The notes beneath the pieces are model-generated. The model saw nothing but the letters and a program-made list of their open reading frames with translations, had not been told where the DNA came from and ran no database searches. This document shows, in pieces, positions 2,354 through 29,882 of a stretch of DNA of 29,882 bases. This DNA is from a bacterium (lineage in GTDB: Bacteria; SAR324; NAC60-12). Where the stretch lies: the NCBI GenBank assembly GCA_965233585.1, contig CBDDTI010000079.1, forward strand, positions 1 through 29,882. The letters are read 5' to 3'. How positions within the stretch are numbered: position 1 is the first letter of the stretch; every line of letters starts with the position of its first letter. Position numbers and translations under genes: made by a program.

Positions 2354-4187
2354 TTCTAAAATGAAGAGGACAATGAAGAGGACAATGAAGAGGACAGATG
2401 GGGTTATTCTATGGCCACAAGAGCCAGGGCTCAAGGTCTGAGGTCGCAGTGGCCAGCCACTAATAAGGGAGAGACTCCCTTATTCCCTACGGAATTTCAA
2501 TGAAATGAAGTTCGTGGCTTGTTGCTGAACCAAAAGACCAAGACTTACCCTCCGGCTCACAGCCGGTAGCCCGGGAGGGGCTACTTACCCAACAATTTAG
2601 ATTCACAAGAACTACTATGTAAGCCCACTCCGGGTTGATGGATTAAAATCAAAATAAAAAGAAATTCGGACCCTGACAGTGGATGTCACTAAGTTTTAAC
2701 ACCTACTGTAGCTTACCTTATGGGGGTTTCTTTTCAAAAGAAGATGAAATGATTTCACTAAGATATTGTGGGAAAAGATGAAAAGTCAGAAGACTCTTTG
2801 GACTTTCTAATTGAGGAGGTATCTTCACCTTACCTTAGAGTGAAGAGGTAATTCAGAGGAGAGGTCTGACCCCAGAGTTCCCCTTAAATGTTTAAGGTTA
2901 AGGCTTACCTTGATGATGAAGATCTCTAGAGTTGGGGAAGATCAACTTATTTACGTCACAAGTTTTTGGGATTATTTGACTATCAGTCAAAGAATTTGAA
3001 AATATTCCAAGTGTTGGAAGGTGTTGTCGAGGTAGAGGTCGATAACAGAACGATTTGATACCAGGTTTGTTGCTCCAAGGTGGTGACTGGACTGCTGTCC
3101 AGGTGATGTCAGAAAGGGGGGAGGGGACTTCCTCCCATGTGGTCTCTTTTTCCTAATTTTATGACCCTGAGAATTTCCGGCTCAATTTTTATTACCCTGT
3201 GAATTCCAACTTTTATGACCCTGTGAATTTCTCCACCCCTTGTGGATTTCTCTTATCAAAATTTCCTAGACCATATGACTTCTTATTGCTGATAATTCCC
3301 CATAGGTTCTAACTGCTATTTCCCTAGTCTAATTCCTTGAGTAGCCTCTGCTACGTACACTGAAGTACACTGATAACCCCCCAGCGCGTTTGGTTTGGTC
3401 AAAACAACTCTCTCACGACTGTGGTGAAGCGTCTCTCCCGATGTTCCCGGGCTTGGAGTCCCCCCAAAAGGGATTGTCCAGCAGATGTCACAATGTGGCC
3501 AGTTGCAATTGTGTGTGAAATTTCCTTATGACAATCATTACCCTGTGATTTTACAACAGGATGCAAATCTCATAATTTTACCATTGTGGGACACATTTTG
3601 TGCACATTAACTCCTTCCTGTGGTTTTATGACAGGATGCGAAATTCACACTTTTATTACTCTAACTGGCTGCGATTCCTGGCCACATGTGATGCCACCAT
3701 CTGCTCTTGGACAGAGGCTGCCAAGCTGGGGAATTCGCGGAGTCCCTGACTTCGTCCCACCCCCGGGACCTGCCACAGCCTCGCGCCTACAGGCAAGGCA
3801 TCCAGCTCCTGTCTGGGAGTAGCTGGACCCTGATCTCGCTCCCTCGAGACCCCAACACACTAGAGTTGCGTGCTTACCGTAAGGAACCCGACCCTCATGA
3901 CATCGGTGATCCCAACCCTCTTCCAGGGCCCTCACACTTAATGCCCGCGCTGGGCGATGTTCTCCGGCGCTCTAGCCTCCTGCTCAGAGCCCAACATCCT
4001 TAAGTTACCCTGCCAGACGCTTTGACGGCAAGGAGCCCCAAACCTCTTGGCTTGGTGACCCGACCCCGGCTTTGTTGGCTCAGAGCCCCAGCGTCCTATG
4101 AATTCCTACCAATTTCCTTATTATTGCTAAATCCTGAATGAACTCTTAAACCCTAATGAAATCTTATCTGAATATTGCTGTTGCTGT

Positions 4188-4273
4188 TGATGATGATGAT
4201 TGGGGGACGATGATGGCGATTGGGATGATGATGGATGATGATGAGGACGATGATGGTGATTGGGATGATGATG
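4188..4273 (+). repeat. Imperfect (GAT)n microsatellite within copy A
   Basis: Visible GAT runs; a shorter (CAT)n counterpart occurs at ~8532-8551 in copy B. Confidence 0.8.
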
Positions 4274-4805
4274 AGCCTTGTTGCAACATTCCTGTATCAT
4301 TCTGCACCGGTTCCTCTACCTCCTCTTAGGCCGTTAGGCCATGGAGGTGACTTCTGTGCACCTGTAACAACTGAACAATTTAATTCTGAACAAGTCTTAT
4401 ACGAAAAAGGACGAAATGGTACCTAATGGCGGATGAATTTTGGACAAAATGAGCGGATTATTCGATTAAAATTTTGGACAATTGAACGGATTACCAGGAT
4501 TAAGACTGATCAAACGATACTTAGTCTTTTGGTTGGTAGCATGGAGCGTGCAGTGGCGTTCTCCGGTGACGGGGTACGCCCTGTACACCTCCCCCCCGGA
4601 AAAGAAGAGGAGGGCACAGCGCTGCCACCAGATGAACCGAACCGGCCCTTTCCGGTTGGTTCTGGGGCGTAGACGAGTCCGGCCTTATGGGTTCCGGATG
4701 AGTGAACTTGGCTGAAAAGACAAAGAGAATGAAATCCGGAACCTACTGCGAAGGCCGGTCCTCCGTGGCCTTAAGGTGTGCTTAAGCACGGAGGAATCGG
4801 CTACA

Positions 4806-7800: not shown

Positions 7801-8043
7801 GGCATCAGGCCGTCCAGGTTCCGCTTGCCCGCGTCATCCAACGCACCCGCCGGGGATATGGTGACGAGAAGGACACCATCAAGCCCATGGAAAAGGTATG
7901 GTTGTTTACATCTAAATCCTCTGCCGACAGGAAATGGGCGGTCCCCTACACTGATCTTGGACGAGTCGTACAACAACTCTCCGGTACTCTTCACACCTTA
8001 CGGCCAGAGGGCAACTGGTGCCGACAACCAAAGGACATAACGT
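4806..8043 (+). mobile_element. Internal remnant of a Gypsy element (copy C) retaining pol
   Basis: ~5470-5750 is homologous to copy A ~1350->1010 (IPGQTQRHEFLQGQQ...YPRNVCGLSGQPTEMS vs IPGRTPRHQCLLGQQ...YPRNVYGFSGQPTGMS) and is followed by pol motifs. Confidence 0.65.
5981..8043 (+). pseudogene. pol: Ty3/Gypsy pol pseudogene (RT, RNase H, integrase) with frameshifts, stops and deletions
   Basis: RT: WSFPLIPVPKK...RWLINYR*, LDGAGAFH, CYLDN (degenerate YxDD), FLGKCGYYRRFI. RNase H: FIIDTDFS..AIGGVLSQ..NYASTKGELLAVI..TDNQAL. Integrase: HHCC (AHQVLGHAG..CRSCQ) and WSMDVLGPL..DVFSKWFEAIP. The RT-RH-INT order is that of Ty3/Gypsy. Confidence 0.92.
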
Positions 8044-10480
8044 TGTCACGTTTCTTTCAGGTTTATGCCTGTCTTAAGCCAGGATGACCTGCCTTCGCAG
8101 TTGGTTCCGGAACTCGTTCATCTCGTCTTTCCTGATGAGTTCACTCGTTCGAAACCCATAAGGCCGGACTCGGCTACACCAGGGGAACAGACCTGGAAGA
8201 GGCCCGGCCCGGTTCACCTGGTGGCAGCGCTGTGCCCTCCTCTTTTTTGCGGGGGAGGTGTAAAGGGCATACCTCAGTCTCCGAAGACACGCCACTGCAC
8301 GACCACTGCTACCACCAAAAGACTAAGTATCGTTTGACCATAAGTAGTACTAGTCTGTCATCCATTATTCTTTGAATTGTTCGCCATTAGGTACCATTCA
8401 GTCCATTTTTCGTGTAAGTTTTGACCTGGAATAGTTCTAGTTGTTTCAGTTAGTCGCCTCCATGGCCTAACGGCCTAAGAGGAGGTAGAGGACTCGGCTC
8501 AGAATGATCCAGGAATGTCGCAAAGAGGTACTCATCATCATCATCATCATCCCCAGGCCAGAGTTGGCCACATCAACATTCATGCAGTCGGAGTTTAAGG
8601 AGAAAAATATTAGAAGGACGCGAGGCGTCGGCAGGGTAACCTTGAGGTGCTGGACTCTGAGCAAGAGAGGCTAGAGTGCCGGGAGAGCACAGCCCAGCAT
8701 GGGCAAGCAGTGTGAGGGCCCTAGGGAGAGGGTCAGGAACGCCAATGTCTCGGGGTTGTGTTCCTTGCGGTAAGCACGCAACTCTAGTGTGTTGGGATCT
8801 CGTTGCCAGAAAGGGACGAGATCAGGGTCCAGCTGCTCCCAGACGGAGCTGGATGCCTTTACCTGTAGGCGCAAGGCTGTCTTACCGGCAGGTCCCCGGA
8901 GGAGAGGGGACGAAGACGGGGCTTTCTGGATTCTCGAGCTTGGCGGCCTCTGTCCCAACGTGGCCCCAGCAGATGGTGAGATCACACATGGATGCCATTG
9001 CAACAGGAAAGGGTTGTAAAAGTGTGGAATTCGCGTCCTGTCATAAATCGCAGGAAGAGAGTCATCAATGCGAAATTCACACATTGCCAACGTGTGGGAT
9101 TCAAATCCTGTCGTATATCGCAGGAAAAGAGACATCCAATGCAAAATTCACACATGGTTTCAATTGGCCAAATGGTGACATCTGTTGGCTAATCCCTTTT
9201 GGGGGGACTCTGAGCTCGCTACCATCAGAAGAGACCGCTTAAACCACAGTCGCGCGCTGGGGGGGTTATCGAATTAATGAGAAATCGAGGAATTAGCGAT
9301 AAAACGATAAAGAGAAACCACATGAGGTGGAGAAATTGAGAAACCATGTGGGGAGGAAGTCCCCTCCCCTTCCTGTTATCATCCTGGACACATGTCCAAC
9401 CCCTACCTTGAAAGCGACAAACCTGATATCAAATCATTCTGTTCTCGACCTCTACCTCAACAACATCTCCTATCTTGAAAAACTTTAGGGAATTACTTGG
9501 CTTGTAGCCCCATAGAACTAAAATCTTAGTGAAATCCACTACCAATTGTTCCATTCCTCTTCCAAATTGAACAGTCATCATCAGGTAAGCCTCAGTCGTA
9601 GCTTTTGAACTTCTTTGATCTTTGGGAGCCCGCCCCAGGCTACCGGCCCCAGGCCGTGAGTAAGTCTTGGTCTTTTGGTTCAGCAATAAGCCACCACTTC
9701 ATTTCATGGAAACTCCGGTAGGGAATAAGAGGATTTTCCCCTTATTACGTGGCTGAATAACCGCTACCTTGTCTTGACTCTACTCATCCTCCTATTTTCT
9801 CCGTTAGCCATGCCGGAGCAGAGCCAACAGCTTCCCCACTTAAGCAAGGTCCGGGGCTCCTACTATTACCTGAACCATGACTTCTGGAGATGGAGAGCCC
9901 GTTTCGAAAATCTTGTGGACCAACATCGGTTGGCGGACCCCGTAGCCAAACAATTTGCTTTCGCCTGTATGCGCGATCTGACCACCCAAACCGTTATGGA
10001 CATCCCACTCTACGGACCCGAAACCCTGGGCCAGATGCTGAACGCCTACCAAAACCGGTTTTGCCTAGTTGAGGACTTGGTGCGTCTCTGAATGCGAAGG
10101 GGAGGAAACTTTCGCGATCCCCGCTATCGACGCCGTGTCAGAAGGAGGAGGAGCCTCTTTAGACCACTACCAAAAAGAGGAATCCAAGCGCCGATCCCGA
10201 CACCGCCCACTGAAAGGGTAGTCCCCATCGATACCGATGGGGGGGGCAGCTCGCCGAGATCATCCTGCCCCCTGACGCCAAAGACACTGAGGCAGAAAGG
10301 ATTGCCAGAAGAACAAAACTGACGATTGCTGTGACGGAGGACCTCCCAGTCCCGCACCAAGAGGGCCCAATTCGCCGTGGCAAAATTCCATCGGAAGGGT
10401 CTCAGGATTTTCCGTCAGGACAGTAGCTGATAGGGTCCACCTCTACTGTCCTTTTCCCCACCGGACCCGTCCTCCCGAAG
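8044..10480 (+). mobile_element. Decayed Gypsy-family LTR retroelement, copy B (5' part), abutting the end of the pol remnant
   Basis: Starts TGTCAC at 8044, exactly where the integrase-tail frame breaks. Colinear with the reverse complement of 4805->~1570. A candidate LTR end GTGACA lies at 9175-9180 (unverified). Confidence 0.7.
9810..10426 (+). pseudogene. gag-like ORF of copy B, interrupted by an in-frame TGA (10089-10091) and a frameshift
   Basis: YYYLNHDFWRWRARFE...VAKQFAFACMRD..VMDIPLYGPETL is homologous to copy A; it ends QDFPSGQ*. Confidence 0.55.
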
Positions 10481-13400
10481 CCACTACCATATCGATTGAG
10501 CGACCCTCTTCGCAGGCCACTAATATCTTGTACTGTTTTGCAGTCTCAGTTCCCCTGAGAAGAAGGATGAGCACGAACGACCAACCGCGCAACATCAGGT
10601 GGGAGTTCCCAGCCCTTGCCCTCCACAATTCCTCTAAGGCTTCAGTCAACCCCGTGGAGAGCGACATCAGGGAAGAAACTCGAGTGGCCCCTCACCGACC
10701 TGGGACCTCAAAGCGGAGACTCCAACCACCAAGGGAGCCTTCCACCGGGGCGAGGGATGCCGTTCCCAGAACCATATCGCCCACTAGACCCAATGGTCCT
10801 GATGCCGACGGTGCCAGCAGAATAGGCGTCGACACCGATCAGAATCACTTCAGCTATACTCGGGGGGGGGGGGGCTACGGCCGTTATGGGACCGGAGGTG
10901 GATTATTTGATGACTACTCTACACACCGGGTCGACCGACAAACGGAATGACAAGCATGGTTGACGAGGAACCCGTTGCTCAGTCGAGCTGAGTAGGACCT
11001 CCCACAACTGCACATGGCTCCTAGCCCAAGGCCAAGAAGGTCTACTGAAAGGGCTCTCGCCAGGAAGAAAAGATCAAAGAGCTCTGCATGGGAAGAGTCA
11101 AAAGCTGAAGACGGTACCCATGACGAAGTCACCCTGGGTGAGGAGAGTGATGGAGATTGTTTTGTAGAACCACCCGATGCTAACCTTGGCATCCAGGCAT
11201 TCGACGCTACAAACCCGAAGATCCAGGGATCCCCTGTGGAATTGTCCCCACCAGAGTCTTCAAAGGAGATGAGCCTGCTCCAGGGACTCCATGTTCCACC
11301 CATGACATTTCCCAAGAAAAACCTTCTCAAGCGGGACCTGATAAGAGACATTTCACCTTCAGAATCTCCAGACTCCGACGTTGAAGTGGTCGGACCCCTC
11401 ATTATAACCACCGACCCGAAGGCCAAAGAGGGAAACACCACAGCAAACCCGAAGAATCCCTCCCCTCTGGTTGTGGTCATTTAAACAGAAAGATTGGGGA
11501 TGGAGAAGAAATTGCCGAAGGGGCATTGGGCGGATTCCGATTCTAACGAATCCCTTCTGAGAACAGTCTTCCGGTCCAGCATGAGGGAACACTCTCCCTC
11601 CAGCGGCAGTCCATCTTCCAGTACCTCCGCTGTCAAGAGTCAGGACGATCTTGTGGAGTTGCCCTCCATCTACTGGGACGCGCCCTGCCCGGCTCGTGTT
11701 CCCAACATAAAGTTGTCGCCGGACCGGCACGCGAGCACCCTGTTTTGGTCGCAATGTAGGAAGACCCTGTAGACTTGGAAACCAACAAAAGTGATCTTTT
11801 CCGTGACGAAACCGGACGACCCGTGGTTGCCAGGTGAGGCAGTGTTGTCAGAGCCTTGGAGGCTGAAAACAGTGATCTTTTCAGTGACTAAACTGGACAA
11901 CCCACGGCTACCAAGTGAGTCAGTGTTGCTAGAGCTTTGGGCTTGGAGGTCGAATGAAAAATTAATGATTCGGAATACTTTGGGAATTCGGGACTTGCAA
12001 ATGATTCTTCCCAATTTGGATGTTCAGTTTGTGGGGAAGTCAGGTGACGCCTGTAGGACTGCGGCTGCCGCGGCTTCACTCCCCCCTTGAGGGCTTTCCG
12101 TAGGGAATGCCGGGGGAATTAATCATCGGAGCTTCTCCCCATAGGATTCGGAACCAAGACTCTGAACATTGGACAGTCGAAGAGTGGATTCAGGCTCCCC
12201 ACAACCCGATCGCAGGTACCACCGGCCCGTGACTACCTCTTCCTGGCCTCCCGTCCTTCACCCACGGATGCCCCGCCAGACCAAATAGCGACCCTGTCAA
12301 CAGAGGCCTCTACGAAGACAGATCACTACATTATTAATGGTGCCCTTTTTCACTTTGAGTGTCTCTTACACTGTGCCATGCTTGTGGTTAAGTGGTCACC
12401 AGCGTGTCTCCTGGTCAGCGGGTCTAGGAGTAAACCTGTGACATCTCTGGCCCCGTCCCGGTCACGCATCCCAGCCACCATTCTAAGGCCAGTCTGGTAT
12501 TTCGCCACCTTCCGGAGGAGCGCTACACCGACGGCAGGGACTTGCCCTCTCTGGAAGAAGATCCCACACCGCTCCTTGAAGGAATGCTGCCCACCGCACA
12601 GTTGTAGTGACCTGAGCCCTGTCACCCTTGTCATTGTCATGCGATATGAACGAAACAATCCAGTAAGTTCCTGCTCCGGCTATAACATTTATCAGTTTCC
12701 CTTTTACACAGATTCTGATATGGCTACCACCCTGGAGATGAACGAGATAACCCAGCTCTGTCCATGGAGCCCCCTCGAGGGAAATGGCTTGCCATGACAG
12801 GTTTTTGAACAGGTACGCCGTGGAAGGACGACTCCCAGCCACGCAGACAGTTGAGTCTTGCCGACAGCCGCGATTCTTCCGGGCGTCGAGGGCGCGAAAC
12901 AAGGGCTGCCGGCCCTCCCGACTCGGTCGGTCCTAACAGCTGCTTCCTTGTCCAGATCAACACCCCGACTAGCTCATCCATGTCCGGAGGGCTTCACCTC
13001 ACTTCTCCATTCGCTTCTACACGGACCCCTCAGTACATCATCTTAGGTTCGCTTGCAGGACTCCTCCCCGTCGCCACGGCCAACCGCTTCACCCTCAAGA
13101 GTGGATATGGCACGTTGAAGCCTGGTATCACCTCACGGCGGACTGCTCCGACCCTTGGAAGTACAGGCCTACTGCAGCGTTCCAGCCAGCCACTGCAGCA
13201 TCCGGGCTACCCCCGTCCAAAAGGATCGACCACCACAGTTCCAACTCTTGCAAAAGGAGAAGAAAAGGTATCTCACCGCATACGTTTGTTTCATTTTTAA
13301 GATGGATATCAGCTACAACTGCGGAGCATACGGACACCCGGAGCTGGATCCCTTGCACTGGTCTTTCTCAGTCAGAATGGTCTCATTCGAACAGTAATGA

Positions 13401-13528
13401 TTATCTTTTAGTGTTGGGTCAACACTTCAAGAAAATATTTACATGTTATGACAGCGCTATTTCCACACTTTAAGAAAATTTAAAAATCTAAAATCTTCCA
13501 AAAGTTTATGAGCGTGCATGTGTTGTAG

Positions 13529-13578
13529 AGAAATGTACCTACATCAGGCTCTTTCGAGCTTGATGTAGGCACATTTCT
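13529..13578. repeat. 23-bp-stem imperfect inverted repeat near the presumed element end
   Basis: AGAAATGTACCTACATCAGGCTC-TTTC-GAGCTTGATGTAGGCACATTTCT. Confidence 0.85.
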
Positions 13579-13702
13579 TCTCAAAACACTCTCAAAACAC
13601 CTTAAAACAGTCTAAAACGGGCTTTTAACCATCCGTTTACGCATGAAAACCATCTTGATGCGCTCTCAAACCACCTTGATGGCATCTACATTGAGTCTGT
13701 TG

Positions 13703-14050
13703 CAGGCTCAATCGAGCCTGTTTTCGTCTGTAATCGGCCTGCAACCGGCTTGTTTTCGTCTGCAATCGGCTTGCAACAGGCTCGATCGAGCCTGTAATCG
13801 GCCTGCAACCGGCTTGTTTTCGTCTGCAATCGGCTTGCAACAGGCTCAATCGAGCCTGTTGCAAGCCGATTACAGGCTCAATCGAGCCTGTTGCAAGCCG
13901 ATTACAGGCTCAATCGAGCCTGTTGCAAGCCGATTACAGGCTCAATCGAGCCTGTTGCAAGCCGATTACAGGCTCAATCGAGCCTGTTGCAAGCCGATTA
14001 CAGGCTCAATCGAGCCTGTTGCAAGCCGATTGCAGACGAAAACAAGCCGG
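13703..14050. repeat. Subterminal palindromic repeat array (32-bp unit x6 plus inverted flanks)
   Basis: CAGGCTCAATCGAGCCTGTTGCAAGCCGATTA at 13841, 13873, 13905, 13937, 13969 and 14001 (last copy ends ...GATTG). Extra CAGGCTC-N4-GAGCCTG cores at 13703 and 13777. 13809-13847 is the inverted copy of 14012-14050. Confidence 0.95.
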
Positions 14051-18960: not shown

Positions 18961-19680
18961 TTATTGCTCTAGACTTTTAAGACATCTGTATAAAGACATA
19001 ACACTGACGCCTAAAATACGAGCCGTATTTTTGACGCTCGGATATAGTGCTCTTGTTTCTTTTAAAAAGGCATAAGCACATGCTGCTAATAAAGTCCTAG
19101 GAGCAAAAGAACTATTTTCATTTTTATTTAGTTTCTCTTTTATAGTTGTCATCTCTTGATAATTTAACTGTAGAGGCTGTAAAAAATATTCTGCCATATC
19201 TTTTGCTTTTATAGAATTTTCTGTTTTAATTGTGTTGGTCGAATCTTGTCTGTATAATTTTATCCATCGCCATACCGTTTTTGGGCTAATACCAATTTCC
19301 TGACACAAGTGACTTATTGGGCGGGGAATTTTTTCCTCTATTAAACTTTGATACAATGCCATAGCAATTAAGCCTTTTGGATTAATTTTAATTTTTCCAT
19401 TTTTTTGATAATGCCACGCTGCTATTTCTGACCACAAATTAAAAATAGTGTTTGTAACATCATTATTTAAATGTAATTTATTACATAAATTTTTTAAAAT
19501 ATTTTTTTCCTTCTTTAAATGTTCGCTGTTTTGTTCAAATTCTTCATTTAAATTTTTTATTTTTTCCCATTTTGTTTCTAAATTTGGATCACAATATATT
19601 TTATCAATAACTAAACCACACTCGGTGCACACTACGTCTCCTTGTCTGGTGTCTTCTATTATATATTGATGAATGCACAT
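18961..19680 (-). CDS. TFIIB-like transcription initiation factor
   Basis: Zn ribbon CIH...EDTRQGDVVCTECGLVID, close to the TFIIB D..GD.VC.ECGLV motif. Two cyclin-fold-like repeats end in HTH-like segments (LCQEIGISPKTV, ARILGVSVMSL). Confidence 0.9.
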   Translation of the reverse strand: MCIHQYIIEDTRQGDVVCTECGLVIDKIYCDPNLETKWEKIKNLNEEFEQNSEHLKKEKNILKNLCNKLHLNNDVTNTIFNLWSEIAAWHYQKNGKIKINPKGLIAMALYQSLIEEKIPRPISHLCQEIGISPKTVWRWIKLYRQDSTNTIKTENSIKAKDMAEYFLQPLQLNYQEMTTIKEKLNKNENSSFAPRTLLAACAYAFLKETRALYPSVKNTARILGVSVMSLYRCLKSLEQ

Positions 19681-19786
19681 TTTAATCCAATCTAATTTTT
19701 GAACATAATTTCATTGTTTATTGCACGAAGTTCAAAATTTAACTGATTTTACAAATAATCCGACGTAATCTTTTATTATATTGAAT

Positions 19787-20329
19787 TTATTCAGTTTTAT
19801 ATTTTTTCAGCAATTCAGAAATAATTTTTATTCCTTGTGTAGCGTCTTTTTCGCAGGAAGCTCCAATTATTACTATTTTTCCAGACGAAAATATTAAAGC
19901 AGAACACTTTTTTAATGTTAAAAACATTCCAGGAAATTTCTCAGAGTCGTATCTCTTTTGGATAATTTCAAAATCTACATTTAATTTCAAATTGTTGTAA
20001 AATGTTAATAAATTGATTTTTGATGACATATGACACAAACAAGTCATGTTTTCTATTTTAAACTTTTCAGTAATAAATTTACTACTTATAACAAGTTTTA
20101 ATTCGTCTAATGCTTTTGGTATATGCTCTGTGGAAGGGATTTTAGTAATATTTACGTGGAAATTTCGATTTTGCTTTGTTTTAGTAAACACAATAAAAGA
20201 ATATTTTTTTTTAACAACAGTAAAATTATTATAATGTTTTAGTACATTATCGGTATTAAAAGAAATTTTGTCACTGTCGATGAGACGAATTTTGCAACTG
20301 ATTTTAACATTGCTGACCATCACTTCCAT
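19787..20329 (-). CDS. TATA-binding protein-like (180 aa from ATG 20329)
   Basis: Two-repeat layout VSNV.../IENM...; YDSEKFPGM and ALIFSSGKIVIIGA match the TBP YEPE.FPGL and LIF.SGK.V.TGA motifs. Confidence 0.92.
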   Translation of the reverse strand: MEVMVSNVKISCKIRLIDSDKISFNTDNVLKHYNNFTVVKKKYSFIVFTKTKQNRNFHVNITKIPSTEHIPKALDELKLVISSKFITEKFKIENMTCLCHMSSKINLLTFYNNLKLNVDFEIIQKRYDSEKFPGMFLTLKKCSALIFSSGKIVIIGASCEKDATQGIKIISELLKKYKTE

Positions 20330-20335
20330 CTTGGT

Positions 20336-21685
20336 ATGGGCTTGCCCGACAAAAGCGGAATTGCTGGATTGGCCGTGGAACAAAACGATGGCACAGAAAG
20401 TGGTTTAGCGCTTCACGCACCCTTAGAAGTGGAAACGGGTCTATTGGAAGGGGCTCACGTTATTTACAATAGCGTGGCTTCTATCACCAACACCGGTCCG
20501 GTAGAATTTCTTGTTCCTCGCGACAACGAGTGTTCTTTTATACTGAGTCAAACCAGACTCAGTGGGCATTTTGTAGTGACAAATGATGACGGTGGCTTTG
20601 TCACGGACGCAAGTAAAACCGCGTTGGTAAATCATTTTGCTGCTTGTTTATTCAGTCAAGTAGAAGTGTATTTGAACGGTGTTCAAGTAGCTGATTTAAG
20701 TTCGGCGGTCACCTACCCCTGGAGAATGTTTTTACAATCATATTTAAGTTACAATATTGACGTAAAAGACACTTATCTGGCTGCCGAAGGATATTATCCC
20801 GAAACTATAGACGAAGTTACCACCACCAAAATTACCGAAGAAGTTTCCTCTCATTCTTTGAAAAAAAGAAAGAATTTGATTTTAAACGGGAAAAAAGTAT
20901 TTTTTAACTCGCGTATAGCTGTTGATCTGTTTGACACTGATCGATTTTTACCACCAAATGTGGATATCAAGATAAAATTGGTTAGATCGGCTGAAACATT
21001 TGGTTTGCTTCAAGATCCTGCAGCAGCAAAACCTTTCAAAATTGTGTTGAAAGATGTCAAATTGCATATGAGAAAAGTGTTGCCCACGTTGATAATACGA
21101 GAAAGTTTCAAAAACAAACTTTTAAAAGAACCGTGCTACCTGCCTTTCAGCTCTACACGTTTAAGACATTACGTTATTCCTCAAGGCGTGTCGTCTTTTA
21201 ACATCGCTAATATTGCTAATGGAACATTACCCAAACAAGTGTTTTTTGTGATGGTTCACAATCAGGCTATGTCGCATGCTCCCGACAAAAATCCTTTTAA
21301 TTTTCAACACTTTAATCTTTCCTCGTTTAATTTAAAAAAGAACGGGCAATGCGTATTTCCCAAACCTTTTCAACCTAACATAGAGGAAGGGGACGTTGTT
21401 GACTTATATCGGCATTTATACGACAGTATAGGCATTTCGCACGGCAATCAGTCCATTGGCTTGACGTATGATGCTTTTATAAATGGAAGATTTTTTCTGG
21501 CGGCCGACTTGACACCAGATCAATGTAATTCGTACCACACACATCCAGAAAATTATGGAAATTTAGATTTAGAGTTGGCTTTTTCCCAAATCACTCCCCA
21601 TCCAATATACGTTCTGGCCTTATCTATTTTTAACTCCGGTATTAAAATAGATCAATTTCAACAAGTCATAAAAGGAACCAATTAA
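20336..21685 (+). CDS. Major capsid protein (double jelly-roll, Polinton type)
   Basis: 449 aa; GPVEFLVP, LFSQVEVYLNG, FLPPNVDIKIKL, LPKQVFFVMV, NPFNFQHFNL, DLTPD, GNLDLELAF are characteristic Polinton MCP motifs. Confidence 0.93.
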   Translation: MGLPDKSGIAGLAVEQNDGTESGLALHAPLEVETGLLEGAHVIYNSVASITNTGPVEFLVPRDNECSFILSQTRLSGHFVVTNDDGGFVTDASKTALVNHFAACLFSQVEVYLNGVQVADLSSAVTYPWRMFLQSYLSYNIDVKDTYLAAEGYYPETIDEVTTTKITEEVSSHSLKKRKNLILNGKKVFFNSRIAVDLFDTDRFLPPNVDIKIKLVRSAETFGLLQDPAAAKPFKIVLKDVKLHMRKVLPTLIIRESFKNKLLKEPCYLPFSSTRLRHYVIPQGVSSFNIANIANGTLPKQVFFVMVHNQAMSHAPDKNPFNFQHFNLSSFNLKKNGQCVFPKPFQPNIEEGDVVDLYRHLYDSIGISHGNQSIGLTYDAFINGRFFLAADLTPDQCNSYHTHPENYGNLDLELAFSQITPHPIYVLALSIFNSGIKIDQFQQVIKGTN

Positions 21686-22184: not shown

Positions 22185-23645
22185 TCATAACTTTGGATAT
22201 TTTCCTGAAAAAAGTTTTTTAACAGAATCTACTTTAGCTTCTGATTTAGACATTTTTCTTGTTTTTGATCTGGTTTTTGCAGGAGACACACCAGCTTCAA
22301 TAGGGTCCCTGTTTATTGGGCTTTTAGATTGTGACATTTTCATTGATTTTGATCTGGTTTTGGTTTGTGCAGGAGTCATGTCAGCATCAGTGGAATTTCT
22401 TTTTGTTGCACCCTTCGATTTAGCTTTTCCGGCTGAAAATCGTATTTTAACAGGTGTGAGTGGAAATGAAGGAGAAGAGCTTCCAATTCCTCTTAATCTT
22501 CTTTTTCGAGGGGTAGAGGTCATTCCAAAAATTTTATCTTGATTTCTTACAGACAATTCTTTATAATGATCTTTCATCATATGTTTGGCAAATTGTGGAA
22601 TGCCGACATATTGCTTCCCGCAATTGGGAAAGGGACAAACTATTTTGCCAGCCGCATTCTTTTCTTTCACTGCTTTTGCAATAGGTGTATTTCGCCAATT
22701 TAACACAACTGGAGATTTTATTGTGGAAAGTGCGTATGAGTAATCCGTTTCATTTGAGCTGTTTCTTCTAGCGTAAGGGCTGGAAATCATTCCTTTAATG
22801 GTCTTTTTGTCTTTCAAAGCTATATCTTTAGGATGATCTTTTAGCAAATGTTTGCCTAATTGCCCTTCATCAACATATTGCTTCCAACAATCAGGAACTG
22901 GACAAACTAATTTGCCTTTTGAATTTCTTTTCGTCATCGCTTCTAAAACAGGTGTTTCTCGCCATTCTTCTCGTTTGGTAGTAACAGGAGTTGAATAAGC
23001 TGATTCGTTCGGACTTTTTGTTTTTTCAGGACTAAGAGATTTTTCTGCAACAAATTCTCTTTCAATAATGGGGGTACTAGGTAAATTATTTTCTTCTTGT
23101 TGGGGAATTTCAGTGGGTGTTCTGTAAAGAGATACGTCCGTGAGATCCATATTGGTATCAATTCGAGCAGGTGTTAGTGCATTTGGTATTTCTTCTCGTT
23201 GCGTTATTTGGGTGGATGGTGATCTTAAAACCGGGTGGTAAGCGCGGTCAATACTGCTACCTTTTTGGGTAACTCGACCAGGAGACATTACATTCTGTAT
23301 TTCTTCTCGTTGAGGAATTTGAGTGGATGGTGATCTCGAAAGAGATTGGTAAGTACGACCCATGCTATCAGATTGGGCAATTGATGTGACATTCGGTAAT
23401 TTATCAGACCCAAAACGAAGTAATTTATCCCCAGTTTGGATTATTTTCTGTCTGTCTTGTAGATTTTTAAATTTAATGGCATTTTCAATATAGTTGGTTG
23501 TTTCCGGTTTTTCATTCATAGAAATAAGTTCCTTTTTTGATTCATCGTCTTCCGTATTTTTTATTAATGAATAATATAATCTTTTAGGTACTAAAAACAT
23601 GGAATACATTTCATCATGTGGTTTTATTTTTACTCCTGAGCTCAT
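22185..23645 (-). CDS. Protein with two C2H2 zinc fingers, S/T-P-rich repeats and a basic tail (486 aa)
   Basis: CPVPDC..QY....LGKHLLKDH and CPFPNC..QY....FAKHMMKDH; internal repeats RSPSTQI.QREEI. Confidence 0.8.
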   Translation of the reverse strand: MSSGVKIKPHDEMYSMFLVPKRLYYSLIKNTEDDESKKELISMNEKPETTNYIENAIKFKNLQDRQKIIQTGDKLLRFGSDKLPNVTSIAQSDSMGRTYQSLSRSPSTQIPQREEIQNVMSPGRVTQKGSSIDRAYHPVLRSPSTQITQREEIPNALTPARIDTNMDLTDVSLYRTPTEIPQQEENNLPSTPIIEREFVAEKSLSPEKTKSPNESAYSTPVTTKREEWRETPVLEAMTKRNSKGKLVCPVPDCWKQYVDEGQLGKHLLKDHPKDIALKDKKTIKGMISSPYARRNSSNETDYSYALSTIKSPVVLNWRNTPIAKAVKEKNAAGKIVCPFPNCGKQYVGIPQFAKHMMKDHYKELSVRNQDKIFGMTSTPRKRRLRGIGSSSPSFPLTPVKIRFSAGKAKSKGATKRNSTDADMTPAQTKTRSKSMKMSQSKSPINRDPIEAGVSPAKTRSKTRKMSKSEAKVDSVKKLFSGKYPKL

Positions 23646-23647
23646 TT

Positions 23648-24022
23648 TTAACGACGACGTCGCGAACTCTTATTTGCAATAATTTGAGCCAAAAGAGGGA
23701 TGACGGTGCTGGCGATCGCTGATAAAACTCCTAAAATTCCGCCCTTTTGTAATATTTTTCTTTTTTTTGAAATGTCGGAAGAACGACGCGGCGGTGCAGC
23801 AAGACGTCTAAATTCTGTCAAATGAGCTCTTATCTTTTTTTGAAGACGTGTTCGTACTTTGCCATGTATGGGCAAGTCACCGTTCAACACGTAATGTAAT
23901 ATACGACAAAGCAATTCAACTCCGCGATCGTCCAAATGACTTAAAAAATTGGCACAATCCTGATGTTTTAATTTTTTTATTACATAAAAAAGTGAACTAG
24001 CTTTTCCTAATGTTTTAGACAT
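23648..24022 (-). CDS. Adenovirus pX-like core protein precursor
   Basis: C-terminal QKGG|ILGVLSAIASTVIPLL resembles the adenoviral pX xxGG|ILPLLIP end; basic protein. Confidence 0.7.
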   Translation of the reverse strand: MSKTLGKASSLFYVIKKLKHQDCANFLSHLDDRGVELLCRILHYVLNGDLPIHGKVRTRLQKKIRAHLTEFRRLAAPPRRSSDISKKRKILQKGGILGVLSAIASTVIPLLAQIIANKSSRRRR

Positions 24023-24829: not shown

Positions 24830-27800
24830 TTATTTACAAATAGGGCATTTAGATGATTTGTTGTTGACAATAAGACAATTTCCTAGTGATAAAGTGTGAT
24901 ATCCGCAATTCAAAATGTGTCTTTTGGAATCCATTGCTGATAACGCAATCTTTCTTTGAAAACATGTCCGAATTTTATGATTCTTTGATCTTAAGTTTTT
25001 GAAAGATTTGTAAATTAGAACAGTCCGTTTCAGACATTTTTTGTAATCGTTATAGGTTAATTGCTTTTTTATGCTAGATTTTTTTAAACCTTTGCAAATT
25101 TTCTTTTCTTCTGTTTTGTTTTTGTCTGAAAAATCAGTAATTTTCATAGAATAACATTTTGGACGTAAGCCTATAAAGTGAGTAATAGCTGCTCTGCCTT
25201 TTAGTTCGTCTTTGAAATAAAAAAGCTGATTGGCTCTACTGTCATCGAAAAGAGGATGTTGTTTGGGGTACTTTGAAAAATCAAATATGTGCTCCAATTT
25301 TTTCATTTCCCTTTCCAAGTTGTTGCATCTTACTTTTAAAAGAAAAGAATCCGTGTCTGAGAAACATAAAGACACATTTTCTTCGCCAAAATGTTGTTGA
25401 ATCGTGTCATAATACGATCTGTACATAAACAACTTGGACAATTCCAAAATAGAAAATCCAACAGCTAAAGGCTTCCTGAGCTCTATTATTGCCGGCTTCT
25501 TGTTGACAGCCACCAAGTTTTCATTGATGATTTGAAAACTGTTGATGTGTTGACCAAGACTGGCTTTCCTTAAGCTCTGTTCATCACCACAAAGGACCAC
25601 TTCAGAGTAATTTCGAACATTTTCTGAAATGCAGAATAAGATTTATTTAATAAAGAAAATTGATTATGTGCGCAATCACCTCAGCTAACTAGCCGTCCCA
25701 TATCACATTTCATTTTCCTCTGTAATTAGCAATGTACTATAATTTACTTCAATTTGAAATCATTCCTTTTTTAAAGCCCGACATAAACGGACATCAAAAA
25801 TTCCAACAAAATAAACACTAAGTCAAAATGGATAAAAAAGATCAGGAAAAGAGCAAAGCTTTTTGGTTAAAAGTAATAAAATCAGCCCAGGAGGAGGCAA
25901 CTTCAAGTCCGACTTCTGGCAGTAGCTCTACCGGGGCTGCGGCTGGGGGAGCATGGTCATCTACTAAAACTGAGGGAGCATGGTCATCTTCTGGGGCTGC
26001 GGGTGGAGGATCATGGGCATCTTCCGAGCGTCCCGTGGCACCTGCTTGGCCATCACGGACTCCGTACAAGTCCGTCCCACAAAAATCAGGGTCGGAGTCG
26101 TGGAAGAGCGCATCTACTGCCGGGGTCGGGGGCGGAGGAGCATGGTCATCCACTAAAACCGGAGGAGCATGGTCATCTTCTGCGGCCTTGGGTGGGGAAT
26201 CATGGTCATCTTCCGAACGTCCCGTGGCACCTGCTTGGCCATCACGGACCCCGTACAAGTCCGTCCCACAAAAATCAGAGCGGGAGTCGTGGAAGAGGCA
26301 TCTACTGTCGGAGCCGGGAGTGGGGGAGCATGGTCATCCACTAAAACTGGAGGAGCATGGTCATCTTCTGGGGCTGTGGGCGGAGGAGCATGGTCATCTG
26401 CTAAAAATGAGGGGGCATGGTCATCCACTAAAACTGCGGGAGCATGGTCATCTTCTGCGGCCTTGGGTGGGGGATCATGGGCATCTTCCGAACGTCCCGT
26501 GGCACCTGCTTGGCCATCACGGACCCCGTACAAGTCCGTCCCACAAAAATCAGGGTCGGAGTCGTGGAAGAGCGCATCTACTACCGGGGCTGGGGGCGGG
26601 GGAGCATGGTCATCTACTAAAACTGGAGGAGCATGGACATCTTCTGGGGCTGTGGGCGGAGGAGCATGGTCATCTGCTAAAACTGAGGGGGCATGGTCAT
26701 CTACTAAAACTGGAGGAGCATGGTCATCTTCTGCGGCTTTGGGTGGAGAATCATGGGCATCTTCCGAGCGACCCGTAGCACCTGCTTGGCCATCACGAAC
26801 CCCGTACAAATCCGTCCCACAAAGGTCGGAGTCAGAGTCACGAAAGCAGACCTCTCATCGCGTGTCATTTGATTTGTCTTCACAATCAACACAAAAATCT
26901 AAACCACAACCCTATACTCACGTGGAACCTTCACCAACACCAGAAGTGCGTCAAGTAACGGCATTTCCATCAGTGTGGTCTCCGTCTACAGCTCGAAAAG
27001 TTACAAAAAAAAATTAAAATTTAAATTTGATCATTTTTCTTTTTCTTTTTGATTACAAAATAAACACATCATTTTATAAAAATTGATTTTTCAAAAGTTT
27101 GCGTACTTGATTAATTCATTTTGCGAATTTTTAATTTAATATTGATTTAATATTATGAATATTTATGAGATAATTTGCTAATTAATATGTGAAGGTTTGG
27201 AGATTCATTTTCTAAAATTGACAAAACCATGCGGGAAAATTCAAAACAAATTTAGAGAAGGAAGAGGAGAAGGAGAAGGAAAAGGAAAATGGACAAGGTA
27301 AAGTTAGGAAGGATGAGGAGGGGGAAATACGAGGTGTTGAGGGCGAAATGGACGGAAGAGGAGGAGGAGGAGAAGTTCAAGCTGCTGCCGGACCCGCCAT
27401 TGAGCGAGACACCGCCGCGTCCACCACTGATGTGGGGCGGTGGCCGTTTTAGACGGCTTGCCAGAGGCTTGATCATGATGATCAGGACGGCCGCCGCCTC
27501 CGTCGCCGACTTTGTTGCCGGTCGTCCGGACGTCATCCCCACCGACGTCATCCCCGCCAACGTCATCCCCACCGACGTCAGCCCCGCCGACGTCATCCCC
27601 GCCGACGTCAGCCCCGCCAACGAAGCCGATGTTTCTGAAGATGACGATTTTGATGAGGCTAAGTGTGTGGTTGGTGCCGGCAGGACGTACTGCCGCAACT
27701 GTCGCCGGTACCACCACGCACTTGTGCCTCAAAATTAAAGAAAAATACAAAAAATGACCCCAAATTCGTTTGAGTATTTAACAAATTCATTTTTTACAGA

Positions 27801-29882
27801 AAAATGGACTGCGTCAAATTACGCTTTTGCGTCTTTTACAATCTCAACATCATTAAATTATCTTATCTCAAAACTTACCAATAAATTTTCCAAAAGTAGA
27901 GTTGGCAAAAAGTTTAAAAAGCCGGAGTTCAAAGTCATTGCGAGCATTTGATCGCAGCTTTGTGACCTTTTCGATGAACTCCTTCAAAAAAGCTTTTTGT
28001 CGAAACTTCATGACTCTTCTTATCTTCAGCAACTTCATGCCCTTTTTCAAGTAGTACTGCAGGTTTTCCAGATGCACCACGTACTTTTTTCGGTCATAAA
28101 AAGTGCTCAACAATTTCTTGCTCCGGTATCTTTTGTTCCTATAATCTCGAGGACAGTGATGTTTCAGTAAACGGCGATTGTAAGGAGATAGATGTTTAAA
28201 AGAAACCGTGTCTGTATACGGAGCCAGCGGAAATTGATCGTGTGCCTGAAAATGATATCATGTAACTTGTCAAAACAATAAATAACGTATCACAACAAAG
28301 ATCGGATTTACCTGGTGAAGATGAGAAGGATAATGCAAATCAACTTCGAACGCATATCCAGTATCGTCTTGCGAAGGAATGTTGATAATATCTTCGGCAG
28401 TCCATTTTTTAAATTCTGTTTTTGAAACCCATTGGAAATCAGAAACTGGTAATTTTAAAGTTTCCATACTCCCGTATAAGTTGTTGGCTGAAAAATTGTA
28501 CGGATCATAACAAAAATGATTTCATCAGATAATACAGTATAAAATTACCATCAATGTATAACAAGTGATCGCCGCTTTTTCTAGGATTGCTATTCCCTTT
28601 GGCATAACGCTGAGCGATAAAACTTTGCCCACCTCTGATACCCTTTGTAAAAAAACGCTCCATTTCAGGATCGGAATAGACATCTAATGATCCGAGGGGT
28701 TTGGAGGTTTCAGATTCGGATGTGAGCTTATTATCTGATTTAGCTTGTTCTGAATTTTGAAAGAACATAAGCATGACATCAAAACTCAAGCCAGGAATTC
28801 CTAATTTAGGTAGAATAAATTTAGTATTACGATACATCCAACAGTAAAGATTAAAGTTTACCTAGATAATAAACAGGATCCAATTGAAAATGTTCCATAA
28901 CCATTTTCCTGTACTGAAGAAATGCTTCACACAGCAAAACAACGTCTAAAGAACAATAGAGCATCATGTAATCCACCACATTCTTGCATTTGAACGATTT
29001 AAAGACTTCTTGAGCATGGGAATAATCCGCTTCCGTAATGTGTTCTTCGTTTAATTCAGAATAAAAAGAGTCTTTGGACGGAAGGTTTCGACTTTTCTTC
29101 ATCTCTTGTAAAGATTGGAAATGTTCGTAACAAAAAACGCCTTTTCTTTTTAAAAGTTTTAAAGCTTTTGATTTTTGACGAACAGGAATTTTTTTATATC
29201 TTTCCATTTGTTGTAAAATGGGAAAGGTAAAATTTGAGGTCTGATTCAAATCTTGAACAAGTGCATCTAGACTGCCAGAAATGTGCTCTAACGAATCTTG
29301 AATTTTAAATTTGCCCAATGTAAGAGTGCGAAACTTTTCACTGTTTTTTGCTAAGACTTTTACATTTTGCTTAAATTTGGAAACATTTAACTCTTCCACG
29401 ATTAAATGCAAATCGTATCTGAAACGCGTACATAATTTGTGTTAGTTTAATAAATAAACCCAATTAAGACTTCTTACCCTTGAGCGTTGTGGAAAAAAAT
29501 TGGTGTGTGAAAGGGGCCGGATCTCGTCAAGTTACACAGTGAATGAGCTGCGCCCATTATTTTCCCTGTCACGTGATCATGATCTAGAACTTTTCTGTAA
29601 TTTCTAGAGTACTTTTTGAATTGACCACCACAAATATGACAAACTTTTGCTTTTTGATACATTTGCCATTCTTGCGGACTAGATTGATTTTTAACAATAT
29701 GTCTGAATTTTTGTTTTCTTTCGTCAACAACTTTTTCATAGAAATGCATTCGATCCAAAAAATGTTTGGCTGCATCCTCTCCTACATATTCTTCTTGAAA
29801 AAATACCTCATCATTCGAATCCACAAAAAGCAAGCTATACCCCACTGGTCTATGCACGTTTATATCGTCACTGGTAGGAAAA
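24830..29882 (-). CDS. polB: Protein-primed family B DNA polymerase, spliced and 5'-partial. Exons: >29881-29478, 29418-28862, 28800-28549, 28487-28312, 28245-27879, 25623-24830
   Basis: Splicing at GT-AG sites gives one open frame of 849 aa in the window. It restores motifs across every junction: FHNAQG/YDLH (Exo II), YYLG/IPGLS, YID/ANNLYG (motif A), LHQ/AHDQFPLAP, KLFANSTFGKFI/ENVR (motif B). SDTDS (motif C) is in the last exon. Confidence 0.95.
25828..27017 (+). CDS. Gly/Ser/Trp-rich repeat protein (~396 aa after repairing a 1-bp deletion at ~26297), nested in the polB intron
   Basis: ATG in CAAAATG context. Four copies of a unit made of GGAWSS repeats plus SERPVAPAWPSRTPYKSVPQ. Unit 2 has AAGAGGCATC where units 1 and 3 have AAGAGCGCATC. 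Confidence 0.75.
27289..27738 (+). CDS. Hypothetical protein with DVIP(T/A)/DVSPA pentapeptide repeats and a Cys/His C-terminus, nested in the polB intron; start uncertain
   Basis: GC-rich island in AT-rich flanks; 15-bp tandem repeat at ~27529-27621; ends C..GRTYCRNCRRYHH. Confidence 0.5.
   Translation: MDKVKLGRMRRGKYEVLRAKWTEEEEEEKFKLLPDPPLSETPPRPPLMWGGGRFRRLARGLIMMIRTAAASVADFVAGRPDVIPTDVIPANVIPTDVSPADVIPADVSPANEADVSEDDDFDEAKCVVGAGRTYCRNCRRYHHALVPQN
28246..28311 (-). other. polB intron (66 bp)
   Basis: CAG|GTAAAT...TTTTCAG|GCA, phase 0. Confidence 0.9.
28488..28548 (-). other. polB intron (61 bp)
   Basis: G|GTAATT...TTTTTCAG|CC, phase 1; splits motif A. Confidence 0.92.
28801..28861 (-). 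other. polB intron (61 bp)
   Basis: G|GTAAAC...AATTAG|GA, phase 1. Confidence 0.85.
29419..29477 (-). other. polB intron (59 bp)
   Basis: GG|GTAAGA...TTTCAG|A, phase 2; splits the Exo II motif. Confidence 0.92.

Follow-up and report, generated by a model that had tools for sequence, protein, structure and literature searches.

A tryptophan-repeat gene nested in the polymerase B intron of a Maverick/Polinton-like element and its resemblance to Argonaute-hook proteins

The polymerase B intron and its nested genes

The window analysed here, a stretch of 29,882 nucleotides, is eukaryotic DNA from a marine eukaryote that was binned into a bacterial assembly. This assembly is filed as a bacterial genome and holds many eukaryotic repeat contigs. 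The window carries a Maverick/Polinton-like element, with matches to DNA_pol_B_2 (protein-primed family B polymerase, E = 4.8e-6) and rve (retroviral-type integrase, E = 2.6e-9) that both pass the Pfam cut-offs. Matches below the cut-offs were obtained for an integrase chromodomain (E = 1.2e-4), the packaging ATPase Pox_A32 (E = 9e-4) and the adenain-like protease Peptidase_C5 (E = 6.4e-3). The contig end falls inside the element.

On the minus strand, the polymerase B gene is interrupted by an intron of 2,255 nt (positions 25624–27878) with canonical GT-AG borders. The exon encoding motif B (KLFANSTFGKF; 27879–28246, minus strand) was identified by its translation and by the DNA_pol_B_2 match, and the 3′ exon encoding motif C (SDTDS; 24830–25623, minus strand) by its translation; diversity among copies is 0.010 and 0.017, respectively. 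The donor reads GTAAGT (27878–27873), the acceptor TTTCAG ends at 25624, and codon phase is preserved across the junction of the two exons. The acceptor is kept in all 11 copies, as is the donor GT (ten GTAAGT, one GTGAGT). The first-pass annotation had described the repeat gene as intron-nested, and these borders, the kept phase and the shared splice sites bear this out, at the sequence level only. Contigs from the four public runs compared with this region are of DNA type and contain no spliced joint.

The intron holds two genes, both on the plus strand and thus antisense to the polymerase. One is the tryptophan-repeat gene (25828–27017) that is the subject of this analysis. The other, ORF2 (27289–27738, 149 aa), combines a hypervariable repeat with a conserved Cys/His-rich C-terminus and is present in all Maverick lineages examined in this assembly; a homologue search returned only unnamed proteins from the same sources. 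The assembly also holds Maverick copies that are more distant; of 14 such copies, 12 lack the tryptophan-repeat gene, and similarity to the window family ends at the intron boundary in 12. The tryptophan-repeat gene is best explained as a lineage-specific accessory gene of the element, placed antisense in the polymerase B intron. Two fast-evolving genes nested antisense in a polymerase intron represent an unusual genome organization for Mavericks/Polintons.

The tryptophan-repeat gene starts at an ATG at 25828, in an AAAATGG context common to other genes of the element, and ends with a stop codon at 27015–27017; a possible polyadenylation signal, AATAAA, can be read off the plus strand 42 nt past the stop (27059–27064). 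A segment encoding a predicted helix (25834–25899) is followed by the tandem repeat array that encodes the evenly spaced tryptophans (25948–26823), in which Tandem Repeats Finder (TRF) resolves 27-nt short units nested in large units of 189 and 276 nt. A 19-residue motif, ERPVAPAWPSRTPYKSVPQ, is encoded four times on the plus strand, at 26026–26082, 26215–26271, 26490–26546 (in the post-shift frame described below) and 26766–26822. The gene closes with a non-repeat C-terminal tail (26928–27014), the most conserved part of the family, with invariant columns in both alignments, A1 and A2.

The Gly/Ser/Thr/Ala-rich tryptophan-repeat protein reported by the first-pass annotation is present on the plus strand, and the string that it quoted, GAWSSTKTGGAWSSSGAVGGGAW, is read in frame at 26169–27017. 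Its description of 25828–27017 as a single gene does not correspond to one open frame in the window: the interval spans 1,190 nt, which is no multiple of three, and the frame is broken near 26297. At 26293–26298 the window is one base shorter than each of the aligned sister copies, with the alignment gap in the window row only; read straight through, the tryptophan frame turns into EHGHLL-type text and then reaches a stop at 26778. Contigs from public runs that cover the site near 26297 have one base more than the window in every case, in three of four runs, the fourth having no cover. Because sister copies and the contigs of three of the four public runs carry the extra base, the window copy is either broken or mis-assembled, and the common form of its family is intact. 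Of the 11 full-length sister copies that the assembly contains, nine have an intact frame of 389–396 aa with 26–27 Trp. At least 11 copies show 89–100% identity, which suggests a recent spread in the host.

Constraint on the tryptophan frame

Comparison of the sister copies shows that the tryptophan frame is coding and under purifying selection, with a pooled pN/pS of 0.32. Variable sites fall 40/35/86 over the three codon positions, and indels among copies, two frameshifts aside, are multiples of three (27, 18 or 15 nt). Where a CpG straddles codon positions, its silent side has changed in 22 of 49 cases and its replacement side in 4 of 49. The tryptophans are the most constrained positions: 1 of 81 Trp-codon sites is variable, versus 160 of 1,110 sites elsewhere (Fisher p = 1.4e-4), and the sole Trp-codon change was found in a frameshifted copy. 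Nonsynonymous diversity is 0.028, close to that of the flanking non-coding intron (0.026–0.042), and constraint apart from the tryptophans is therefore weak.

We considered whether no tryptophan protein is made at all, in which case the open frame would simply result from a GC-rich minisatellite, or an antisense frame of DDHAPP-type repeats, on the same strand as the polymerase, would give the real product. Three frames are open through the array in the window, and so is the antisense frame whose third codon positions coincide with those of the tryptophan frame (337 codons in an intact copy), with an equally low pN/pS of 0.29. No RNA run is among the six public runs listed, which come from two studies. 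However, stops in this antisense frame are impossible given the amino acids of the tryptophan frame, as a matter of codon logic, and it has no ATG anywhere. Transitions that turn TGG into a stop are silent in the antisense frame, and they number 0 of 25. Of the transitions that leave the protein unchanged in both frames, 64 of 284 occurred, and the chance of this difference is ~0.002. Only the tryptophan frame runs on into the non-repeat N- and C-termini; the other five frames have stops in these regions, whose protein sequence is conserved in diverged members. In the tail, variable sites fall 4/4/10 by codon position. Conservation among sister copies does not favour another reading frame, an outcome that would have spoken against the first-pass annotation. 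The absent stop-creating changes, the missing ATG and the closure of the other frames at the termini lead us to reject the antisense frame as the real product, and we regard the absence of any tryptophan protein as very improbable.

The predicted protein and its relatives

Protein features were measured on an intact natural sister copy (P0001), which encodes 396 aa and is rich in Ser (22.7%), Ala (13.1%), Gly (12.9%), Thr (8.1%) and Trp (6.8%). Of its 27 Trp, 25 lie within residues 36–345, in agreement with the approximately 25 counted in the first-pass annotation. The spacing given there, mostly 9–11 residues, applies to 18 of the 26 Trp-to-Trp gaps, which measure 11 (ten times) or 9 (eight times); the rest are longer, at 14 (three times), 18 (three times), 30 or 63 residues. 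This spacing is far more even than in residue shuffles, with a coefficient of variation of 0.25 versus a shuffle mean of 0.90 and none of 10,000 shuffles as even. The regularity arises from tandem duplication and is therefore no independent sign of function. The four larger units reported at first pass were recovered as well: the 19-residue motif recurs at residues 67, 130, 222 and 314, and the TRF periods are 189 and 276 nt, with a 27-nt sub-period. In the window lineage, the residue before Trp is Ala 18 times and Ser 7 times, the residue after it is Ser 15 times, and none of the 27 Trp forms a strict GW or WG dipeptide, as the first-pass annotation had cautioned.

AlphaFold2 predicts disorder throughout, with a mean pLDDT of 35, no residue at or above 70 and values of 28–39 over the Trp region. 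The sole predicted secondary structure is an N-terminal helix at residues 3–24 (alignment A1, block pLDDT 55–59), which includes the stretch AFWLKVI. The protein is basic (pI 10, net charge +19), has a Lys-rich C-terminus and contains little Asn (0.5%) or Asp (0.8%). Only four Phe or Tyr residues occur in the 310-residue array, each being the Tyr of a PAWPSRTPY motif. A secreted or glycosylated repeat protein was rejected, as the N-terminus is charged and helical, unlike a signal peptide as judged by eye.

The family is tiny. A search of 1.84 billion representatives gave 19 matches, each a short protein belonging to this small family, and members beyond this assembly are short metagenome proteins from the European Nucleotide Archive (ENA) only. 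Searches of metagenome, viral and genome contig collections returned no relatives with DNA context. Neither half of the window frame matches a Pfam family, a PDB sequence search gave no chain at E up to 10, and the ESM Atlas gave no usable match.

Diverged sister lineages have strict WG motifs, uniformly offset by 11 residues. Gly follows Trp in 8 of 11 cases in P0008, and the C224 copies read AWGSS, a true WG. P0012 has no short GAWSS-type repeats, and its only Trp lie in the PAWPSRTPY motif, of which it has three copies; part of the family can therefore do without the array. The number of short repeats ranges from none to about 20 across lineages. From these comparisons, the short repeats turn over fast between lineages, and the Trp and their spacing persist. 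The most conserved parts of the family are two non-GW linear motifs rather than the short repeats, and PSRTPY-SVP is invariant among diverged members. Net charge is positive in every member (+12 to +22), and Asp plus Asn amount to ~1%.

Candidate roles of the tryptophan array

Evenly spaced Trp in a disordered protein form a layout best known from proteins that grab Argonaute. The resemblance to Argonaute-hook proteins proposed at first pass holds, and is stronger than first seen, as seen in the predicted disorder, the composition apart from Asn and Asp, the near-invariant Trp and the strict WG of sister lineages. A hyper-variable low-complexity context around conserved Trp is given as the hallmark of Argonaute-binding domains in the available text of one study (PMC4615383), and here 25 Trp are placed in a disordered low-complexity region. 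According to the part of a second study available to us (PMC2910046), WG/GW domains prefer W, G, N, S, A and D, also Glu, with L, I, M, Y and C least expected; by these criteria, preferred residues (W, G, N, S, A, D) make up 63.2% of the array and disfavoured residues 2.3%. [quoted passage not shown] Trp in Argonaute ligands adjoin Gly ‘often, but not always’ in the accessible portion of a preprint (bioRxiv 10.1101/2025.10.18.683247), an adjacency seen in P0008 and the C224 copies and at none of the 27 Trp of the window lineage.

Disorder and Trp conservation fit an Argonaute-hook platform, composition and spacing do so in part, and the basic charge does not. The net charge of the family and its scarcity of Asn and Asp stand against WG/GW domains that favour Asn, Asp and Glu (PMC2910046, as far as its available text goes). 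The missing GW/WG dipeptides of the window lineage, its eight 9-residue gaps and the lack of short repeats in P0012 also argue against a hook. Positively charged residues surround the pockets of at least one Argonaute, according to a published abstract. Strong conservation of the Trp pockets is limited to metazoan AGO-clade proteins, with variation in the PIWI clade, according to the section of PMC12477606 that was accessible; the target may not exist in this host. A Pfam Piwi search of the assembly found no Argonaute gene.

Compared with the Argonaute-binding domain of animal GW182/TNRC6, the predicted protein shares many Trp in a disordered, hyper-variable Gly/Ser-rich region, Trp pairs about ten residues apart and a multivalent design. 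It differs in having no homology to GW182/TNRC6, no Pfam match to the folded parts of those proteins (UBA-like domain, RRM, silencing domain), no GW/WG dipeptide in the window lineage and a basic rather than Asn/Asp/Glu-rich composition; it is also encoded by a mobile element, with 25 regular Trp in 396 aa derived from recent tandem duplication. The plant platforms NRPE1 and SPT5-like/KTF1 consist almost entirely of short tandem repeats in which Trp, small neighbours and composition are kept among relatives, as the available part of PMC2910046 has it, and the sister lineages described here likewise have AWGSS with true WG. Those platforms are acidic or neutral C-terminal extensions of polymerase or elongation-factor subunits, whereas the present protein stands alone, is basic and has another two conserved linear motifs. 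As in viral WG/GW silencing suppressors such as P1 of Sweet potato mild mottle virus (PMC2904775, available text), a parasite protein would engage host Argonaute through Trp. Those suppressors are RNA-virus proteins with few motifs in larger proteins, whereas this would be a DNA element with a dedicated array of ~25 motifs.

In the best reading, which we hold only tentatively, the protein is a decoy that would offer host Argonaute a multivalent set of Trp hooks; a condensate scaffold is a close rival. The hooks of the array would fill Trp-binding pockets on a host protein, with an AGO-clade Argonaute, whose PIWI domain has three such pockets, as the foremost candidate. By competing with a host GW partner or soaking up loaded Argonaute, the protein could dampen the silencing of the element by small RNAs. 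Anchoring or localization through further partners may fall to the conserved tail and the PAWPSRTPY motif. High-identity multicopy repeats are probably the kind of sequence that small-RNA pathways usually target, which may supply a motive for counter-defence. A dedicated Argonaute sponge, in which ~25 hooks draw loaded AGO-clade Argonaute off its GW partner and the array expands and contracts in an arms race with host silencing, seems rather unlikely.

The scaffold reading, which we consider somewhat unlikely, requires no specific pocket-bearing receptor: Trp would drive self-association or co-condensation, perhaps with nucleic acid, and so provide the element with a compartment for replication or assembly. 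Phase separation is favoured where aromatic residues are uniformly patterned, and an assembly protein of adenovirus functions in this manner. The very uniform spacing, the full predicted disorder, the high positive charge and a repeat number that varies among lineages, as expected for tunable valence, are consistent with such a scaffold, and even aromatics in a Gly/Ser-rich disordered sequence are shared with aromatic sticker-and-spacer domains. Known low-complexity scaffolds, however, mix Tyr and Phe, and Trp is the only aromatic in the repeats and would be the sole sticker; Lys, not Arg, supplies the charge, and the sequence is not rich in Gln/Asn. Strict Trp conservation suits a pocket ligand at least equally well, and P0012 has no array. 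A pocket ligand need not bind Argonaute, as the same Trp grammar would serve another receptor, such as the CCR4-NOT or PAN3 deadenylase modules, which Trp motifs of GW182 recruit, or nuclear transport receptors, and so redirect mRNA decay or aid nuclear entry. Trp pockets exist on CNOT9 and PAN3, and the binding of FG repeats by nuclear transport receptors offers an aromatic-repeat analogy. The Trp-containing regions of GW182 serve non-Argonaute partners too, at least in the available text of PMC4615383. The invariant proline-rich motif followed by R-T-P-Y-K in each large unit could, like the Lys-rich C-terminus, act as a docking or localization signal. Nothing specific indicates any of these receptors, however, and the motif readings are by-eye pattern matches; we judge this alternative distinctly unlikely.

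A quite improbable alternative is a virion or maturation protein, with a disordered core, cement or membrane-active role comparable to that of adenovirus minor proteins. Those proteins have an amphipathic helix at the N-terminus, disorder in the middle and a functional peptide at the C-terminus, and the predicted N-terminal helix with AFWLKVI, the long disordered middle and the highly conserved basic tail follow a similar plan. The element also encodes a putative adenain-like protease, by a weak Pfam match (E = 0.0064). However, the gene is missing from most of the more distant Maverick copies and is therefore not a core structural gene, and the protein has no homology to a solved structure or Pfam family. 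Adenain-type Leu-x-Gly-Gly sites vary between lineages, and processing into peptides at these candidate sites is not supported, as they are not conserved.

Virus-like elements of the Maverick/Polinton type are widespread, and for most of the accessory genes that they carry no role is known. If the sponge reading is true, the protein would be the first RNAi suppressor described for Mavericks/Polintons and the most multivalent parasite-encoded hook mimic, as far as a limited literature search shows. If it does not serve counter-defence, it would still be a clear natural case of an evenly patterned, Trp-only disordered protein, with a valence that differs among close lineages. A lineage-specific gene that is under selection and carries the Trp grammar of Argonaute platforms is a concrete counter-defence candidate for such an element.

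A eukaryote-type contig carrying a Maverick element

The assembly (12 Mb, 747 contigs), from which the 29.9-kb contig C79 was taken whole as the window, scores as a prokaryote (92% complete, 2% contaminated). C79 itself consists of eukaryote-type DNA. Maverick loci with spliceosomal introns number at least 25 in the assembly and are spread over more than 20 contigs, and retrotransposon remnants are present as well; eukaryotic repeat contigs of this kind escape marker-gene contamination scores. The left 14 kb of the window (1–14000) is GC-rich (about 0.55) and carries a Ty3/gypsy-type RT–RNase H retrotransposon remnant at 6449–7324 (RT_RNaseH, E 6.6e-24). Numerous overlapping open frames occur on both strands of this block. 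Near 14000 it meets AT-rich DNA, and the right half (GC about 0.33) is a Maverick/Polinton-like element. For the analysis it was taken to be possibly an animal provirus, and all copies used were natural ones.

The element has an rve integrase and a protein-primed polymerase B (Pfam). Pfam matches are weaker for an A32-type ATPase and an adenain-like protease, and that to an integrase chromodomain falls under the cut-off. On the minus strand at 18961–20404, a TATA-binding-protein-like ORF (Pfam TBP, E 1.7e-16) lies beside a TFIIB-like ORF (TFIIB zinc ribbon, E 3.1e-8, and helix-turn-helix matches). It is unusual for a Maverick/Polinton to carry its own pair of basal transcription factors. A 486-aa ORF (22185–23669, minus strand), whose weak matches to C2H2 zinc fingers and the FOXP coiled coil all miss the Pfam cut-offs, is possibly another regulatory cargo gene. 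At the contig end, upstream of the polymerase exons, an Endonuclease VII-like domain (29474–29881, minus strand; PF02945, E 6.7e-7) may belong to the polymerase gene as its N-terminal portion or represent a gene of its own.

Two genes nested in a polymerase B intron

The Trp-repeat gene (plus strand, 25828–27017) had been proposed to lie within an intron, and at the sequence level it does. On the minus strand, GTAAGT comes directly after the exon encoding polymerase motif B (KLFANSTFGKF...), which ends at 27879; the acceptor TTTCAG ends at 25624, and the next exon, encoding motif C (SDTDS), continues with codon phase unchanged across the junction. The acceptor is kept in all 11 aligned copies, as is the donor GT (ten GTAAGT, one GTGAGT). 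Diversity is 2–4 times lower in the exons than in the intron contents (0.010–0.017 versus 0.026–0.083). Further upstream, the polymerase gene is divided into several frames (28257–29441), with at least one further TTTCAG-type acceptor near 28246 (28246–28260, minus strand), and thus seems to have several introns.

The 2255-nt intron contains two plus-strand genes, the Trp-repeat gene and ORF2 (27289–27738). The Trp-repeat gene shares its start context, AAAATGG, with most other genes of the element, and an AATAAA follows 42 nt past its stop. Among public sequencing runs listed for the region, none was of RNA. ORF2 encodes a hypervariable acidic/proline repeat (DVIPTDV... in the window, PTESPIEMLIEA... 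in other lineages) and, at its C-terminus, a conserved region rich in Cys and His that contains ...TYCRNCRRYHHALV.... It is the most diverse segment (pairwise difference 0.083), is found in every Maverick lineage examined in the assembly, and has homologues in the same metagenome sources only. In the database protein P0017, the N-terminal half of a Trp protein is naturally fused to an ORF2 C-terminal half. Of the more distant Maverick copies in the assembly, 14 were examined (86–90% identical in the ATPase and polymerase 3' exon); 12 of these carry an ORF2 homologue alone in the intron; the other two, on contig C224, carry diverged Trp-repeat genes, both broken. The Trp-repeat gene is therefore accessory and lineage-specific, not a core gene.

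Integrity and selection of the Trp frame

Gly/Ser/Thr/Ala-rich text with regularly spaced Trp is indeed encoded on the plus strand at 25828–27017, but the first-pass annotation had read this interval as one protein, which its length of 1190 nt does not allow. Near 26297 the window lacks one base that all aligned sister copies have; read straight through, the frame yields different text after the shift and stops at 26778. Every contig covering this site in three of four public runs has one base more there than the window; the fourth run is without cover at this point. Among 11 full-length copies in the assembly (DNA identity 89–100%), the Trp frame is intact in nine, with 26–27 Trp each (396 aa in seven, 393 aa and 389 aa in one each), and frameshifted in two, the window copy and that on contig C476. 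The window's own copy of the gene is broken.

In the intact 396-aa sister copy P0001, a 19-residue motif at residues 67, 130, 222 and 314 bears out the four larger units described earlier. About 25 Trp in the repeats, mostly 9–11 residues apart, had been noted earlier; P0001 has 27, and 18 of its 26 gaps are of 9 or 11 residues, the rest being of other lengths. This layout matches tandem-repeat (TRF) periods of 27, 189 and 276 nt. None of 10,000 shuffles of P0001 was equally regular; since the spacing stems from tandem duplication, it is not an independent sign of function.

Variable sites fall at codon positions 1/2/3 of the Trp frame as 40/35/86 (11 copies), and pairwise dN/dS is 0.09–0.62 (28 pairs, 8 intact copies). 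Over the array, pooled pN/pS is 0.32 in the Trp frame and 1.09–1.56 in four of the other five frames. The antisense frame sharing third positions is also open, with pN/pS 0.29. Such a frame cannot gain stops where the sense codons are Gly, Ala, Ser, Thr, Trp, Lys, Glu, Pro and Val, so separate tests were needed. Transitions silent in both frames had occurred at 64 of 284 possible sites; those silent in the antisense frame but turning TGG into a stop in the Trp frame, at 0 of 25 (chance about 0.002). The 337 codons of the antisense frame include no ATG. In the non-repeat ends, the Trp frame alone stays open, with stops in the other five, and variable sites number 4/4/10 by codon position. These three observations favour the Trp frame over the antisense frame; conservation among sister copies, which might have pointed to another frame, supports the one originally read.

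As an internal control against plain mutational bias, CpGs straddling codon positions had changed on the silent side in 22 of 49 cases and on the replacement side in 4 of 49. Constraint is strongest at the Trp codons, where 1 of 81 sites varies; at other codons the figure is 160 of 1110 (Fisher p 1.4e-4). The one Trp-codon change is in the frameshifted C476 copy. Constraint outside the Trp codons is weak, nonsynonymous diversity being 0.028 against 0.026–0.042 in flanking non-coding intron.

Across the gene and its sister copies, silent CpG transitions (22/49) are about twice as frequent as silent transitions overall (64/284), and CpG observed/expected is 0.70, which hints at CpG methylation by the host.

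A predicted disordered Trp array and its possible partners

AlphaFold2, run on nine natural sequences, gave a mean pLDDT of 35, with no residue at or above 70 and a single helix at residues 3–24. The protein is basic (pI 10.0, net charge +19), with no Pfam family match, no relative in the PDB and no look-alike in the Atlas. When 1.84 billion representatives were searched exhaustively with HMMER, 19 matches emerged, all of them short members of this family; many are frame-hopping gene calls on broken copies. Searches of three DNA collections yielded no related loci. Diverged intact members (P0008, P0011, P0012 and P0013) conserve a Lys-rich N-terminal helix with one Trp, a PAWPSRTPY-SVP motif region and the C-terminal tail (PEVRQVTAFPSVWSPSTARKVTKKN in P0001). 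The short repeats are GGAWSSTKT/GGAWSSSGAV in the window lineage; P0008, P0013 and the C224 copies have AWGSSGAAGG-type repeats in which WG is strict and the offset is uniformly 11 residues, and P0012 is without any short repeats.

The protein had been likened to Argonaute hooks, whose Trp residues are described as lying in disordered, hyper-variable low-complexity sequence (PMC4615383). The likeness stands for predicted disorder, Trp density and hyper-variability. WG/GW domains are reported to keep just the Trp/Gly pair and overall composition, with W and G highest, then N, S, A and D, and L, I, M, Y and C lowest (PMC2910046); the array mostly agrees (63% preferred, 2.3% disfavoured residues), but the protein is basic with almost no Asn or Asp. 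The spacing agrees in part with that of TNRC6, in which each site is described as having at least two Trp, ten or more residues apart, opposite three PIWI-domain pockets (PMC9262622). WG/GW adjacency is absent from the window lineage, as the original caveat about a non-strict motif recognized, whereas sister lineages do have strict WG; a Gly beside Trp is reported as common, not required (bioRxiv 10.1101/2025.10.18.683247). The protein is not a GW182 family member by homology, and no Piwi-domain gene was found in the assembly.

By analogy, Argonaute binding is the best single mechanism offered for the Trp array, and a tentative one. An aromatic sticker-and-spacer scaffold would account for the same features nearly as well and is considered somewhat less likely. 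That the array is a ligand of other Trp-pocket receptors appears improbable, and a virion role for the protein slightly more so. Among the titles returned by full-text literature searches, none described a Maverick/Polinton-encoded Trp-repeat or Argonaute-binding protein.

The Trp-array protein, predicted to be disordered, is real and under selection in a young Maverick lineage, encoded antisense within a polymerase intron. If it does act as an Argonaute hook, its target would be AGO-clade rather than PIWI-clade proteins; the Trp pockets are described as strongly conserved among AGO-clade proteins of metazoans and as varying in the PIWI clade (PMC12477606).
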